Positions 2,771-9,305 of a stretch of 16,676 bases of DNA are shown here, piece after piece. The stretch is from a virus (Duplodnaviria; Heunggongvirae; Uroviricota; Caudoviricetes): IMG/VR virus record IMGVR_UViG_3300014932_000131; one strand, written 5' to 3'. Numbering within the stretch: the stretch's first letter is position 1; every line of letters starts with the position of its first letter. Under the pieces are notes generated by a model, which did not search any database, was not told where the DNA came from, and saw nothing but the letters and a program-made list of their open reading frames with translations. The position numbers and the translations under genes were made by a program.

Positions 2771-2798
2771 AATCAAATTAATTATAATTAAATTGATT
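2771..2798. repeat. 28-bp near-perfect AT-rich palindrome
   Basis: AATCAAATTAATTATAATTAAATTGATT is self-complementary except for one mismatched pair. It lies between the stop of the beta-barrel-like gene and the downstream promoter. Confidence 0.7.
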
Positions 2799-4047
2799 AG
2801 AGATTTATTTTACTTCCCACCACCATGAATACCAATGAAGGCATACTTGGATTAGTGCTAAGACTTGTCTTTAATCCTGTATTAAATTTAAATCTCTTGG
2901 TTATCGAATAGTCTATATTGAAGCCTGTAAGGAACGTCATATCTTCACTTATTGTAAAGGTGTTATCTTTTGTTCCATAAGTTACAGGGCTCCCAGATAT
3001 ATATAAATCAGGAGATATAGTTAGTTTTCTATTGATACTGAATGGTTTAGTATAAAATAATAATAGAGAATGTGTTGTTGTATATTGTTTTTTGTTTAGT
3101 CCATAACTTGCAGAAGCTATACTAAGTGTCATGTTACCTCCTGTTACCCCCCAGTTACCCATTGGATAGATGTAAGCATAAGTTATAAACCCAAATACAT
3201 TACCAAAAGCATAAGCCACGGTTGCACCATAGTTAGATATACTTTGTAGTTTACCATCTACTATATTCATCTGTGTATATCTACTAGATAGAGCGAATTG
3301 TTGAAGATTACTCCATACCATTCCTGTAAGTCCCCAGCTTACGTCACCTGCCATAGATGATTGTGATATACCACTAGTTACTATTAAGTTAACTGAACCA
3401 TCTAAAGTTTGTCCACCAGTAAGATCAGAGTTAAATAGTATGGGATTCATTTTAGCTCCACCACCCTTTCCACCTGAGGACTTACCCCCTCCCCCCTTGC
3501 TTTCAGATTTGCTTTCTGATTTTGATTCTGACTTGCTCTCTCCTGAACTACTAGATTCACTTTTACTTTCTCCAGAACTTGAACTACTAGAGCTTGATTC
3601 AGAACTGGTTGTAGAAGAAGAACTTGATGCTGAACTAGCAGCAGCAGAACTAGCACTAGAAGCTGCTGATGATGCTGCAGAGCTTGTAGCAGCTCCAACA
3701 GCTGAACTAGCTGCTGAACTAACAGCTGAGCTTACTGCAGAGGATACAGCAGAGGCTGTAATTTGAGTAGTAGTTGATGCACTTTGTGCAACAGAACAAG
3801 GAGATAATGCTCTATATTGTTCATAAACTTGGTTAATCCATATTTGAAATGCTCCATTTGACACATCAGCAGATGTGAAAGTTCTTGACTTATTGTAGAA
3901 TACAATAGTAGTGCTTCCAGTAATAGGTATACTAAAAACACTAACAACCTTTGTACAGGGATCAATAAATGTCTGTATTAGAGTTTGAGAATAAGTTATT
4001 ATTGGTAGTATTACTACTAATATAACCATTAATATAAACCTTCTCAT
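2797..4047 (-). CDS. Secreted protein with a Ser/Ala-rich linker and a C-terminal outer-membrane beta-barrel-like domain
   Basis: Signal peptide MRRFILMVILVVILPIITYS|Q. A ~110-aa N-terminal domain is followed by a ~100-aa S/A/E/K/G low-complexity linker. The C-terminal half has alternating hydrophobic/aromatic beta-strands and ends ...FMVVGSKINL. Confidence 0.7.
   Translation of the reverse strand: MRRFILMVILVVILPIITYSQTLIQTFIDPCTKVVSVFSIPITGSTTIVFYNKSRTFTSADVSNGAFQIWINQVYEQYRALSPCSVAQSASTTTQITASAVSSAVSSAVSSAASSAVGAATSSAASSAASSASSAAASSASSSSSTTSSESSSSSSSSGESKSESSSSGESKSESKSESKSESKGGGGKSSGGKGGGAKMNPILFNSDLTGGQTLDGSVNLIVTSGISQSSMAGDVSWGLTGMVWSNLQQFALSSRYTQMNIVDGKLQSISNYGATVAYAFGNVFGFITYAYIYPMGNWGVTGGNMTLSIASASYGLNKKQYTTTHSLLLFYTKPFSINRKLTISPDLYISGSPVTYGTKDNTFTISEDMTFLTGFNIDYSITKRFKFNTGLKTSLSTNPSMPSLVFMVVGSKINL
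3447..3770 (-). repeat. Coding low-complexity repeat (ASSAVSSAVSS..., SSSSSSS, ESKS x n, GGKGGG)
   Basis: Read directly from the translation of 2797..4047. Codons are degenerate, so this is not an exact tandem DNA repeat. Boundaries are approximate. Confidence 0.8.
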
Positions 4048-4766
4048 TATTTAGTAAAGATTCCTTTTTTCACCATTCTATCCAAGATTCTAGCACAAGC
4101 TATATCTAGAGCCTTTTTAGTTGCAATACTAATTGTTGATTGGTTAAATTTCACAGGATCTAATGCAGCATCTGAAGTTATACCAGCAGTTTCTTTAGTT
4201 GTTTTTGCATCACCAAGACCAGAGCCACTAAACACCACTCCAGTTTCAGCATCTGTGAATCTAACTTGTAGACCAATTCGTGTGACCACAAGTTGCTTTG
4301 TACCATCTTTAAGGCTAATAGCCTCATCTTCTGAAATACTATAATCATAACATTCTATTGTAACAAAATATTTAGCTAAGTTGATCTTTCCTCGACCATC
4401 TAGCTTGTTCTCAGATATACCTGCTTGGCTAGCCTGGAACTGTTTCACCATCCTATTCTTAATTTCAGTTTTATCTTCAGTAAACTTAAACCTATTAAGG
4501 TTTTCTAAATACTCCATAGATATATTAGCCACACCTAACCCCACACGTTTTTCCTTAAGCTCAGGATACATCTCATACATTTCATCATTGATACCACACT
4601 TCAGGATTTGAATAGGAATTTGAGGTCCTTCATAATCCATAAAGCTTGATATATCAATAGCCTTCTCAAAGCTAGCCTTGTATTGCTCTGTAGAGGTTTT
4701 TGCAAGTTGAGCTTGTAACAAATTAGTATATAAAATTGTTACAAAAAGTATTAATAATTGTTTCAT
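4047..4766 (-). CDS. CsgG-like (curli assembly/transport family) secreted protein
   Basis: Signal peptide ending LLQA|Q. Segments RVGLGVANISMEYLENLNRFKFTE, QFQASQAG, AKYFVTIECYDY and IGLQVRFTDAETGVVFSGSGLG follow the CsgG/TolB-N/FlgT-like topology. There is no lipobox, unlike enterobacterial CsgG. Confidence 0.7.
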   Translation of the reverse strand: MKQLLILFVTILYTNLLQAQLAKTSTEQYKASFEKAIDISSFMDYEGPQIPIQILKCGINDEMYEMYPELKEKRVGLGVANISMEYLENLNRFKFTEDKTEIKNRMVKQFQASQAGISENKLDGRGKINLAKYFVTIECYDYSISEDEAISLKDGTKQLVVTRIGLQVRFTDAETGVVFSGSGLGDAKTTKETAGITSDAALDPVKFNQSTISIATKKALDIACARILDRMVKKGIFTK

Positions 4767-5128
4767 TAATGTCTGATTCTTCCATGTGAATGTCCTCTAA
4801 TTATAGTATAAGGTATATACTGTTGAGGTACAACTATTGGATATGAATGATAAAAAAATGGGGTTGATGTGATGTTAAAACTAGCTTGTGGAGTCATAGA
4901 AGTACCATCACTATAATATTTTTGAATAGTATGCACTTGCTTGCCTGTACTATCTGTTGTAATAGTTTCTACAATATGATAAGGTGTATTACAACTCACA
5001 ATAAATATTACAATAATTAACATTGCTATTTTCTTTAGCACTGCTAAATTAGCTTTAACTAATTCTAACTTTTTAATTCCAGAGCGTATGCTACGCATAG
5101 GTCTCTTTTTAGGTGCTGCACTTCCCAT
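4766..5128 (-). CDS. Putative lipoprotein with a basic N-terminal extension (start uncertain; internal ATG at 5023)
   Basis: A Lys/Arg-rich first 35 aa, then MLIIVIFIVS|C (lipobox-like Cys, codon 4991-4993), then a short beta-rich region and a Pro/Tyr/His-rich tail. Confidence 0.6.
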   Translation of the reverse strand: MGSAAPKKRPMRSIRSGIKKLELVKANLAVLKKIAMLIIVIFIVSCNTPYHIVETITTDSTGKQVHTIQKYYSDGTSMTPQASFNITSTPFFYHSYPIVVPQQYIPYTIIRGHSHGRIRH

Positions 5129-5131
5129 AAT

Positions 5132-5464
5132 TTACCATTTAGGATCTTGATTTTTAAATTCATCTCCTTCCTTTTTCTTAGGAGCTGGAGCTGGTTGACT
5201 TGCTTTTTCTTTCTCTTTAATTACCACTGTCTTAGTTCCAGCAGCTTGTTGTTGCTGAGGAATATTAATGTTAATTGATTGAGGTTGAACTTGTTTATCA
5301 CTCTCTTTAGGCTTTTGTAAGTAGGTCATTAAGAATGCACCACCTGCAGTGACTAAAGTACCAACAGTACCAATGATTGTTTTTTTCAAACCACTCATTG
5401 AACCATCATTATGTTTTTCGTTTTTCTCCATTTTGTCCTCTGGAGATTGTTCTTTCTTAGCCAT
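5132..5464 (-). CDS. Membrane-anchored hypothetical protein (110 aa)
   Basis: One hydrophobic segment (TIIGTVGTLVTAGGAFLMTYL) with charged and Q/P/K-rich, probably disordered flanks. Confidence 0.75.
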   Translation of the reverse strand: MAKKEQSPEDKMEKNEKHNDGSMSGLKKTIIGTVGTLVTAGGAFLMTYLQKPKESDKQVQPQSININIPQQQQAAGTKTVVIKEKEKASQPAPAPKKKEGDEFKNQDPKW

Positions 5465-5823
5465 TATTTTATAGTTATAGGTGTTTTAGATTCATTTCCT
5501 TGAATATCAAGTAGATGTATATCATAATTTAGTTTCTTCACTGTAGATAGATCGTACACTCTAGTTACAAGAGCAGTGCTTGCTGTAAATCCTTCTTTTA
5601 TAGTTGGTGTACTAGAGTTAAATGGAATGATTTGTACAGAGTATTTAGATCCTGAAGTTACAGCAAATGTAGCGGTAACAACATTATTAGTTTGTATAAC
5701 ACTAACAATGGAAGTTGATGTAGCTTTAATACCTAAATCAATTCCTATTGGTGTTGGTTGAGTAATTGTTTTAGTACAACCAGATATTATAATTAAGGCA
5801 CAGCAGATTTTTATAATTTTCAT
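5464..5823 (-). CDS. Putative lipoprotein with an Ig-like domain resembling a T9SS C-terminal sorting domain
   Basis: Lipobox MKIIKICCALIIISG|C. The C-terminus YSVQI...YDLSTVKKLNYDIHLLDIQGNESKTPITIK resembles the type A T9SS CTD pattern (..D-l-S-x-L-x-x-G-x-Y..K-x-x-x-K). Confidence 0.6.
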   Translation of the reverse strand: MKIIKICCALIIISGCTKTITQPTPIGIDLGIKATSTSIVSVIQTNNVVTATFAVTSGSKYSVQIIPFNSSTPTIKEGFTASTALVTRVYDLSTVKKLNYDIHLLDIQGNESKTPITIK

Positions 5824-5824
5824 A

Positions 5825-7588
5825 CTAGAAGTTGTTATATCCTGTTAATTTAATTGTGTTTGTATTCAGTTTAATCCCTAATTGATTTCCCTTATTATCA
5901 GAAGCATCCATTATATTACCCACCTTTATTTGTGTAGCTATATCTAATCCATTTCCTATAGCAGAAAATTTAAGTGTAAAAGGAACTTGAGCTCCTGTAA
6001 TGGGTGCTTTTAAATCTTTATTAATAGCTCCAAATTTAATTCTACCATCTTTAGGAGTGGCAAATGTAAACCATGTATTAGGGAGATTTGTAGCTAAGCT
6101 TTCAAATTTGATCTTTGTAGAATCATAATCAAACTCAAATTGTAAAGCTCCTACATTATTTGTTGTGTTAATATTAATAGGAATCTCTACAGTGTTAGAA
6201 GTTACAGTGAGATTATTCAAACTAACATCCACTGGATCTTTATTAATATTAGGAGTGTTAATATATCCTATAGAGAAAGATTTAATAACTCCTGCAGTGT
6301 CAACTACTTGTGAGCTATGACTTCTATTTATATCTCCAGGAATTAAGTATTTTAAGTTCAATGGAAGATTAGATCCCAACTTACCTGTTTTAAAATATAC
6401 ATACTCAGATGTAATATCTTTCCAGCTACTAGTAGTTGTATTATTAAATACTGAGTCTGTAAATGTAGGAACATCTAAATATACATCTGTACCTGATTTG
6501 TAGTTAGTTGGTAATACATAAAATGAATCTAGAGATACAGTTTGAGCAAATATTCTAGTAATATCACCTCCATCAAATATGTGATTTTTATTAACATCTG
6601 CAGCATAGTATCCCATACCAGTTTTGATATTAGATCCTGAGAATGTACCATCTAGATTTTGATTAGTAAATTCAGCCTGAGCTGCAGTGAAATCACTCAC
6701 TGTAATAGCAGCATTTGTAATATCTTTCACTACATCAGCATTCACTCTAACTGCCACTTTATAAACTGTATTAGCTTTAAACTTAGTTTGATCTACAGCA
6801 AGATCACCATTATCATTAGCATCTACTAAATAGGTAGTTTTAGCAACTGTATCTATAAATGCCACTCTTGTAAGGGTAAATTGAGTTAAAGCAGAGTTAA
6901 CATCTACACGACCTTTAACATATGATTCAGAATTAGGATCTAAGTAAATTGGAATGTTTAATGGAGTTTCCATAACTGTAGCTCCTGTAGAACCATCACT
7001 ATTAAATGCAGCACCAAAGTTCATTCTAATAGGATCAAAAGATAATCCTACAGCATTAGCATTCAATCTAAATGTAAGTTTTTCTAATCCCCAATAGGTA
7101 GTATAAGGCATTTTGTTAGCAGAAGCCCAAGTTAATGAATGTCTAATAATGGTATGATTACCACCTTGAGTGTATGCATAGTTTGCATATTGGTAGTTTG
7201 TGTTACCATTAGTTGTAGTGTTATTAGTATTCTGGCTAAATCTATATCCAGGATATTGATAATAAGATTCTGATATACTAGCACCTGAAGGAAGAGTTCC
7301 TCCATTACCACCAGTTCCTGTATTAGTAATGCTTAATAATGTCAAAGCTGTATTCTGATATTCAAAATCAAAATATAGCTGTCTAGTGGTAGTGTTTGAA
7401 TTACCATTAGCTGCTACATACATAACTAGTGTATCCCCTTTTTTAAGAGTGGTTCCATGATCATTAACACTTACAGTATCACCAGTACCATTAACATTTG
7501 AGCTTAATTTAAGTTTAATGTTTTGTCCAAAAGAAAATGTCACAATTATTTGAAAAATTGTGACAAGTAATAATAGTTTTTTGTTCAT
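5825..7588 (-). CDS. Secreted multidomain protein with cohesin-like and dockerin/EF-hand-like elements
   Basis: Signal peptide ending FSFG|Q. C-terminal cohesin-like segment VEIPININTTNNVGALQFEFDYDSTKIKFESL. N-terminal cohesin-like segment GDTLVMYV...LYFDFEYQNTALTLLSI. Dockerin-like Ca-binding loops AADVNKNHIFDGGD and GDINRS. Very Thr/Asn-rich. Confidence 0.7.
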   Translation of the reverse strand: MNKKLLLLVTIFQIIVTFSFGQNIKLKLSSNVNGTGDTVSVNDHGTTLKKGDTLVMYVAANGNSNTTTRQLYFDFEYQNTALTLLSITNTGTGGNGGTLPSGASISESYYQYPGYRFSQNTNNTTTNGNTNYQYANYAYTQGGNHTIIRHSLTWASANKMPYTTYWGLEKLTFRLNANAVGLSFDPIRMNFGAAFNSDGSTGATVMETPLNIPIYLDPNSESYVKGRVDVNSALTQFTLTRVAFIDTVAKTTYLVDANDNGDLAVDQTKFKANTVYKVAVRVNADVVKDITNAAITVSDFTAAQAEFTNQNLDGTFSGSNIKTGMGYYAADVNKNHIFDGGDITRIFAQTVSLDSFYVLPTNYKSGTDVYLDVPTFTDSVFNNTTTSSWKDITSEYVYFKTGKLGSNLPLNLKYLIPGDINRSHSSQVVDTAGVIKSFSIGYINTPNINKDPVDVSLNNLTVTSNTVEIPININTTNNVGALQFEFDYDSTKIKFESLATNLPNTWFTFATPKDGRIKFGAINKDLKAPITGAQVPFTLKFSAIGNGLDIATQIKVGNIMDASDNKGNQLGIKLNTNTIKLTGYNNF

Positions 7589-8134
7589 TTATTTTGTGTC
7601 TAATAGTTTGTTAACCAATGAGTTACAAGCAATTTCTCTGAGCTTTTGTTTAGTTTCTTCTGAATGTTTCTTACCAGTATTTATAACTCTAAGTTTTTCT
7701 TTTGTTTCTTCAGAAAGAACTTTACCCTTATGACGTTCGCTTATTTTTAACTTTGTTTCCTCAGAATGACTTCCTCTTTTTTTTCCTAATTTAGCAAGTC
7801 TAAGTTTTTCTTTATGCTCTGGAGATAACGTTTTGCCTAACCAAGTTCCTTTTGTTCCAGGGTTAGAAGCTCCTCCATCTGCCATATTAACTAATAGTCC
7901 TTCTTTCAAATCAAATCTACCATAATCTTTGATCATACCAATTTCTACTATTCTAGCTTCATCTATGGTGCAACCTTCTATAAGTATATCTACAGCATAC
8001 CCTACTTTATTGACTATATTTTTCCAATACTTATTTCTACTAGATTTATTATATGCTCTTCCTTTATTGGCACCTATACCTATGTAGAATACAGTATTGT
8101 CATCTAACCTTCTATGTTGATATACTACTGCCAT
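7589..8134 (-). mobile_element. Free-standing GIY-YIG-type homing endonuclease with NUMOD3 repeats
   Basis: N-terminal VVY...FYIGIG...GRAY...E...LVN (GIY-YIG variant) and four NUMOD3-like repeats (LSPEHKEKLR, HSEETKLKIS, LSEETKEKLR, HSEETKQKLR). It is wedged with TAA-ATG junctions into an otherwise secreted-protein operon. Confidence 0.85.
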
Positions 8135-8581
8135 TTAATTTAATAACTTATTTATTAATGACACACAAGTCTTTTTCATTGCAGAAGAAAGACTAGTCTG
8201 ATTAAACTTGCCCCCTTCATCTATCAACAAAGTGGACATTGATGTTTCTTCTGCAGATTCTTCAGCTGTTGCTTTCTTCTTTCCAAGAGTTCCTTGTAAT
8301 CTAATTACAACTTCCTCTTTATTACTATGCATCACAGAGAAACTTGATTGTGTCTTTAATACATCTAAGTAAACTATATCTACATCTATTCTGTTTTCAG
8401 AATTATGATCTATTAAAATATCTTTATCTTGAAGTACTTCTTCTAGGATGTTCTTAACACCAAACTCTAGCTTTCTATTGCCAGCCACTGGTCCAAGCTT
8501 CACTTTATTTGTAATATTTCCTATACTAACAGACTTTGGTTGAGGAAACCATAACGTTAATGCTAACAATAAGGTTATCAT
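8135..8581 (-). CDS. Secreted or membrane-anchored hypothetical protein (148 aa), possibly a small CsgG/LptE-like alpha/beta fold
   Basis: Hydrophobic N-terminus MITLLLALTLWFPQ. Helix RKLEFGVKNILEEVL, strands IDVDIVYLD and VVIRLQG, and a C-terminal helix SLSSAMKKTCVSLINKLL. Confidence 0.7.
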   Translation of the reverse strand: MITLLLALTLWFPQPKSVSIGNITNKVKLGPVAGNRKLEFGVKNILEEVLQDKDILIDHNSENRIDVDIVYLDVLKTQSSFSVMHSNKEEVVIRLQGTLGKKKATAEESAEETSMSTLLIDEGGKFNQTSLSSAMKKTCVSLINKLLN

Positions 8582-8700
8582 TTTCCTTGTCTATTATATG
8601 GTTTAGTTGCTTTGTCCTTAGGACCTTTGAACTTTGTAGCTTTACCACCTTTACGTTTTCCAAAGTTGATTTTTTTTGTACTTGATGCTGCTTTTGCCAT
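8578..8700 (-). CDS. Highly basic micro-protein (40 aa)
   Basis: Below the ORF-track cutoff: MAKAASSTKKINFGKRKGGKATKFKGPKDKATKPYNRQGK*. It is coupled on both sides (TAATG with the endolysin stop, ATGA with the next start). Confidence 0.8.
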   Translation of the reverse strand: MAKAASSTKKINFGKRKGGKATKFKGPKDKATKPYNRQGK

Positions 8701-9305
8701 TAAATGCTTCCGTTTAATAAATTATTATATATATGAAAATGTTTAATACGATCTTCAAGACCTATTACACCACCATTCACCTTTCTAGTTACCTTACCTA
8801 CTATTTCATCACTTGCTCCTTGATCAGCTACAGCATTAAGTCCTACCTTGTTCCAGAAAAACCCAGCAGAAGCTAAAGGATATTTAGTTGCAACAAGATC
8901 AGGATTAGCTACAGTATCTTCTCCAATAGCTTTAGCAAATGCTGCATAGTTATCATGACCTGTTAATTGAATATATCCTCTACCATGAAACTTCCAACCA
9001 TCACCAGAAGCTTTATCTCCATTACCCATTCTGTTAGCATACACCAAATTAGCTATCTTTTCAGGCTTACGTTCATATGCTGCAGCAGTGGCTACATCAA
9101 AATATTTAGGGAATGTACCTAATAAACCTTTAGCTCCATAGTTTAAATTTTCATTAACTAGTTTGAAATCACCAGATTCATGAGCACATTGTGCTAAGAA
9201 ATGAGCTAAACGTAATGGTGTATTGATACCAAATTTGTCCTGAATATCAGGGATTTGTGTAATAACACTATCAGGAACAGTTCCTTTTAATTTATCTACA
9301 TTCAT
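8700..9305 (-). CDS. Endolysin, glycoside hydrolase family 19 (chitinase class I-like)
   Basis: Hallmark motifs LAHFLAQCAHESGDF, YANRMGNGD, GRGYIQLTGHDNY, SAGFFW and VTRKVNGGVIGLEDR. Confidence 0.92.
   Translation of the reverse strand: MNVDKLKGTVPDSVITQIPDIQDKFGINTPLRLAHFLAQCAHESGDFKLVNENLNYGAKGLLGTFPKYFDVATAAAYERKPEKIANLVYANRMGNGDKASGDGWKFHGRGYIQLTGHDNYAAFAKAIGEDTVANPDLVATKYPLASAGFFWNKVGLNAVADQGASDEIVGKVTRKVNGGVIGLEDRIKHFHIYNNLLNGSI

Follow-up and report, generated by a model that had tools for sequence, protein, structure and literature searches.

The Locus and Its Genes

The window, the full 16,676-nt stretch of the Caudoviricetes record IMGVR_UViG_3300014932_000131, of which positions 7,589–8,581 are the piece shown, includes three genes that abut one another via stop-start junctions on the minus strand: gene A (8135–8581, 148 amino acids), an endonuclease ORF (7589–8134, 181 amino acids), and gene C (5825–7588, 587 amino acids). 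A glycoside hydrolase 19 endolysin is among the neighbors, and relatives of the locus are found on viral contigs of about 100–130 kb, which identifies the DNA as that of a phage. Genes A and C belong to a coupled gene block behind the endolysin (2797–8581), characterized by hydrophobic N-termini.

The predicted model of gene A (pLDDT 78) has an alpha/beta fold with a terminal helix at residues 128–147, and its best Foldseek matches are to LptE (E 1e-6, TM about 0.54). A preliminary description of this DNA called the gene “accessory,” a label not supported for one conserved over thousands of relatives (3431 homologs); it is a conserved gene with a predicted LptE-like fold, here considered a putative envelope-protein gene. 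Gene C has a weak match to a cohesin domain (PF00963, E 8e-5, under the cut-off).

The ORF between them matches the phrog_314 homing endonuclease (E 6e-22). Residues 1–90 (7865–8134) form a predicted GIY-YIG catalytic domain, for which the best structural superposition is with the catalytic domain of I-TevI (Z 9.7, rmsd 2.3, 85 residues aligned), followed by further GIY-YIG enzymes and UvrC; Foldseek alone gave this fold with E 0.05 and probability 0.98. A Pfam search of the endonuclease found no GIY-YIG model, and a PDB sequence search returned only spurious helicase matches. Across 51 sequences, residues Y5, Y17, R26, E64, and N83 show no variation; by motif order, they are the presumed equivalents of the I-TevI catalytic residues. 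Positions 7637–7837 encode NUMOD3 repeats (PF07460, E 3.6e-11, above the cut-off), four short helices that are also present in the predicted model and are presumed to bind DNA. For unsaturated pairs, nuclease dN/dS is about 0.1–0.3; the catalytic domain is conserved under purifying selection, and the enzyme looks intact. There is no signal for a promoter of its own, with seven promoter-like sites against 5.7 expected.

A Replaced Gene End and a Stranded One

It had been noted previously that the last ten codons of gene A (8167–8138) resemble a stretch close to the end of the endonuclease ORF (codons 170–179, 7627–7598, both on the minus strand), and this was confirmed in all particulars: 7 of 10 residues and 19 of 30 nucleotides are identical, four of the identical residues are encoded by different synonymous codons, and ATG directly follows both stop codons. 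With BLOSUM62, this match scores 37; of the 33,288 ten-mers obtained by translating the window in six frames, the next best reaches 24. The duplicated ends are thus real, but the feature is longer than originally noted: as shown below, the swap begins at 8201, 13 codons upstream of the peptide first seen.

Eighty viral loci with relatives of gene A were compared. None has an endonuclease after gene A, and in nearly all of these empty loci gene C follows directly. Gene A of the closest, L001, ends in a DTK tail, as do P0121 and P0122, which are 94% identical to the window's gene A. The contig carrying P0122 (L246) is an empty allele. Aligned with the window, it shows 97.4% identity along 2360 bp of left flank and 93.4% along 544 bp of right flank (97.7% for the first 300 nt of gene C), and the junctions are sharp. 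Within gene A, 378 of 380 nt agree up to position 8202, then only 39 of 64 (61%); from 7630 on, the two agree again, without a mismatch through the stop codon and into gene C. By this alignment, an element of 571 bp (8201–7631, minus strand) stands in place of 31 native bases, its insertion point falling within the final 24 codons of gene A. The preliminary description had predicted an endonuclease-free allele in which the DTK tail comes directly before the cohesin gene, and L246 is exactly that; the closest endonuclease-free relatives share this arrangement. Nor is this tail a generic ending of NUMOD3 endonucleases, since none of about 75 endonuclease relatives at other loci ends in this way.

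Gene A in the window is therefore a hybrid, consisting of a native body and an element-borne 3′ end of 21 codons plus stop (8135–8201), the swapped part corresponding to the terminal helix of the predicted fold. The native 3′ end has been left stranded at 7589–7630 (13 codons plus stop); it is identical to L246 at 42 of 42 bases, retains the stop-start junction with gene C, and now serves as the end of the endonuclease ORF, which lacks its own stop codon and continues into it.

The proposal that the endonuclease supplied a “recoded replacement” holds as far as the replacement goes, but this is not plain recoding. Compared to L246, five of the 21 replacement codons are identical, eight are synonymous, and eight are non-synonymous; this rules out a purely silent recoding and indicates a diverged homolog. 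Over 60 nt, the window's replacement tail is 82–83% identical to the best other filled alleles and 72% to the best empty allele, so that it travels with the element; at this level of identity, no donor was found among the empty alleles compared. A foreign donor or long divergence on the element would fit equally well. No single base was found that divides all replacement tails from all empty alleles; window positions 8198, 8188, and 8187 are skewed between the two groups, but not absolutely.

A group I intron can be dismissed. For positions 7000–9000 of the window, no Rfam match was obtained at E up to 1; moreover, none of the 571 bases is noncoding, and gene A reaches its own stop codon before the nuclease begins.

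Gene C, on the right flank of the element, is itself a mosaic, with a start like those of L001–L003 and a body nearer the L047–L077 group (about 50% vs. 41%). Its first codons also include a hairpin of 10 pairs followed by a T run (7538–7565, minus strand). L246 shares both, so the mosaicism predates the element and the hairpin is not part of it.

Filled Alleles in Other Lineages

The same site is filled in L241, L242, L243–245, L247–248, L249–250, L251–252, L254–255, L256, and L257–259, and the close relatives of the nuclease examined (65–97% identity) are all between genes A and C. Filled alleles look rare, a point against homing, with none in the 80 viral loci and one confirmed among the best 120 protein matches; those listed were obtained through protein look-ups, and neither a metagenome scan nor a DNA pattern scan of viral contigs turned up a close one. 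The layout is the same in independent assemblies from ENA, JGI, and Logan.

Each filled allele has its own in-gene tail and its own stranded tail. Five filled alleles were paired with the nearest empty one, whose identity is 80–100% to the stranded tail and 63–70% to the in-gene tail. The stranded pieces vary in length: the longest begin at the codon of the window's left junction, while others are shorter by up to about 11 codons. There is no stop codon ahead of the stranded DNA in any copy. The stranded tail is read in frame in some copies and out of frame in L242, L247, and L251, and P0010 and P0011 appear to be one frame apart at the same junction. The endonuclease had been described as capturing the C-terminus of its neighbor; its ORF does read into the native tail in the window, but the out-of-frame copies show that in-frame capture is not a required feature, and it is probably an incidental by-product.

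P0208, chosen solely for a tail resembling the window's, proved to belong to a filled allele, L258. The elements of L258 and the window share 93% identity, against 71% (left) and 62% (right) for the 300-base flanks, and the stranded tail of L258 is identical to that of a related empty allele, L004, at 33 of 33 positions, compared with 26 of 33 for the window. When the window is compared with L243, the nuclease shows a synonymous difference of 0.37 and gene A one of 0.73. As judged from these alignments, the element has moved recently between phage lineages.

Tails and nucleases do not always correspond. The window's tail is 82% identical to that of L249, whose nuclease is 67% identical, and 73% identical to that of L243, whose nuclease is 89% identical. 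This hints that tails may be exchanged or fast-changing.

How the Element May Move

The insertion site is within a gene; the gene is completed in frame by a diverged end; the host's own tail is left behind; and the same site is occupied in several lineages. Most likely this is an intron-less homing element in which a GIY-YIG/NUMOD3 endonuclease is combined with a spare 3′ end for gene A. The preliminary description had suggested tail replacement without an intron, of the kind known from fungi, and this reading is supported with adjustments (the swapped end comprises 21 codons, and 31 native bases have been lost), with cleavage and immunity as its presumptive parts.

In a mixed infection, the nuclease would cut the empty allele in or near the 31 replaced bases. 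The filled genome would then serve as repair template, with homology provided on the left by the conserved part of gene A and on the right by the stranded tail together with gene C. The filled allele would escape cutting, with its tail about 40% diverged and the 31 native bases gone. Since the tail encodes what is predicted to be the terminal helix of the fold, gene A could presumably not simply be truncated, and a spare tail would be needed. Probably there was a single ancestral insertion, which left the entire tail stranded and cost the nuclease its stop codon; separate deletions would later have shortened the stranded piece.

Homing could also depend on a distant cut, in gene C, the endolysin, or another neighbor, as for the Seg enzymes of phage T4; the tail swap would then be an insertion scar rather than a source of immunity. 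Free-standing T4 endonucleases are described as cutting hundreds to thousands of bases from their own genes (PMC2988022), and the lack of a diagnostic base in the tails is in keeping with this. Such a cut would, however, be expected to carry donor DNA into the interval separating it from the element, barring erasure by later recombination; instead, host sequence continues up to the element edge on both sides: on the left for 41 of 41 nt in two pairs, on the right for 42 of 42 and 33 of 33. This favors cleavage within or close to the 31 replaced bases, allowing that later recombination could also restore flanks, and makes a distant cut unlikely. More improbable again is a passive passenger, in which a single illegitimate insertion created the duplicate tail and the spread since then came about through ordinary recombination, the nuclease being kept for some other job (for example, interference with co-infecting phages) or slowly decaying. 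The genomes of this group are mosaic anyway, as gene C shows with 41% identity to one clade and about 50% to another, but exactly this unit has been transferred repeatedly among hosts that differ by about 30%, the junctions coinciding with its ends, and its catalytic domain is under purifying selection.

That the two ends are similar by chance, or represent a generic NUMOD3 ending or an assembly artifact, might be suggested by the shortness of the stretch and the AT-rich DNA. The exact match to L246 refutes this, however, and the agreement of independent assemblies and the lack of this tail on nucleases elsewhere leave it a negligible prospect.

A bolder reading, possible but less likely than not, is that tail-swapping is common, if so far undescribed, among free-standing phage endonucleases, and that the replacement tails at this locus are in an arms race like that of WHO elements, changing or being exchanged faster than the nuclease and thereby letting elements evade cutting by one another.

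Comparison with Known Systems

The window probably contains a phage version of a kind of homing element well described in fungal mitochondria and yeast. In mitochondria, mORFs, for which tested cleavage is reported, create gene hybrids in atp6 of Allomyces macrogynus and in atp6, atp9, cox2, and nad3 of Glomus sp. (PMC3630166). Their layout is that of the window, with a foreign C-terminus joined in frame, an endonuclease ORF behind it, and the native C-terminus last; compared to an empty relative, the native end is 91–98% identical and the inserted end 64–81% (PMC3630166), against 100 and 61% here. The Glomus atp9 element, like the window's, has a GIY-YIG nuclease (PMC3630166). The differences are that the window is from a phage, that its swapped end is only 21 codons long, that 31 native bases have been deleted, and that its nuclease, lacking its own stop codon, continues into the native tail.

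WHO elements, at FBA1 in Torulaspora, likewise involve neither intron nor intein: the 3′ part of the host gene is replaced, and the old part is left downstream, where old fragments are progressively deleted, another likeness to the window; allele-specific cutting and self-resistance have been tested (PMC7282813; 10.64898/2026.08.13.744650). They differ in having a LAGLIDADG nuclease with a zinc finger, in replacing half of an essential yeast gene, and in forming stacked clusters. No stacked elements were seen at the gene A/gene C site. The window's element would operate in much the same way, but with a GIY-YIG/NUMOD3 nuclease and a host gene of predicted LptE-like fold, it is not a WHO element in the strict sense.

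Among phage systems, the T4 Seg enzymes are also GIY-YIG nucleases outside introns with an I-TevI-like catalytic domain, and their movement is termed “intronless homing”; their genes are intergenic and they cut at a distance, and the available part of the account describes no gene end both replaced and stranded (PMC2988022). The HEG-islands of ICP1-like phages resemble the window in having gene fragments beside nuclease genes, proposed as substrates for homing recombination, but they carry multi-gene cargo bracketed by nucleases, and no single in-frame tail swap is described in the portion of that source available (PMC10055350). No description of the tail-swap layout in a phage was found in the literature searched, which is weak evidence given its limited coverage; what comes closest is the mention of gene fragments in the ICP1 HEG-islands.

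The locus offers a clean, probable phage example of homing free of introns and inteins that lends itself to testing: empty and filled alleles can be paired, and the candidate target spans no more than about 31–70 bases. It illustrates how a tightly coupled operon can admit a free-standing nuclease with both neighbors left unbroken. It also suggests caution: the last codons of such genes have a history unlike that of the rest of the gene, and the annotated ends of nucleases may be borrowed.

Other Sites

Relatives of the nuclease at other loci include two further candidate tail-swap sites. In L141 (2870–4500; also in L139), a 964-aa gene, whose product we read as SbcC-like, is followed by a 234-aa GIY-YIG-type gene, after which come two stranded copies of the 964-aa gene's C-terminus, near 3772 and 4462. 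The pattern resembles scars left by two insertions stacked on one another, like those of WHO clusters. In L090, L091, L096, L106, and L179, the nuclease and an upstream 288–293-aa gene share their last four to six residues, with synonymous differences, possibly a miniature version of the same swap.

The gene block containing genes A and C seems to have been invaded repeatedly, since distant relatives of the nuclease occupy other junctions within it, about 3.4 kb after gene A in L053 and about 2.1 kb after it in L057; L057 showed no duplicated tail. At a different site, immediately ahead of the endolysin gene, L253 (2501–3160) has a member of a 218-aa nuclease clade, 57% identical and with a longer C-terminus, which may resemble the ancestor of the element's nuclease before its C-terminus was lost.
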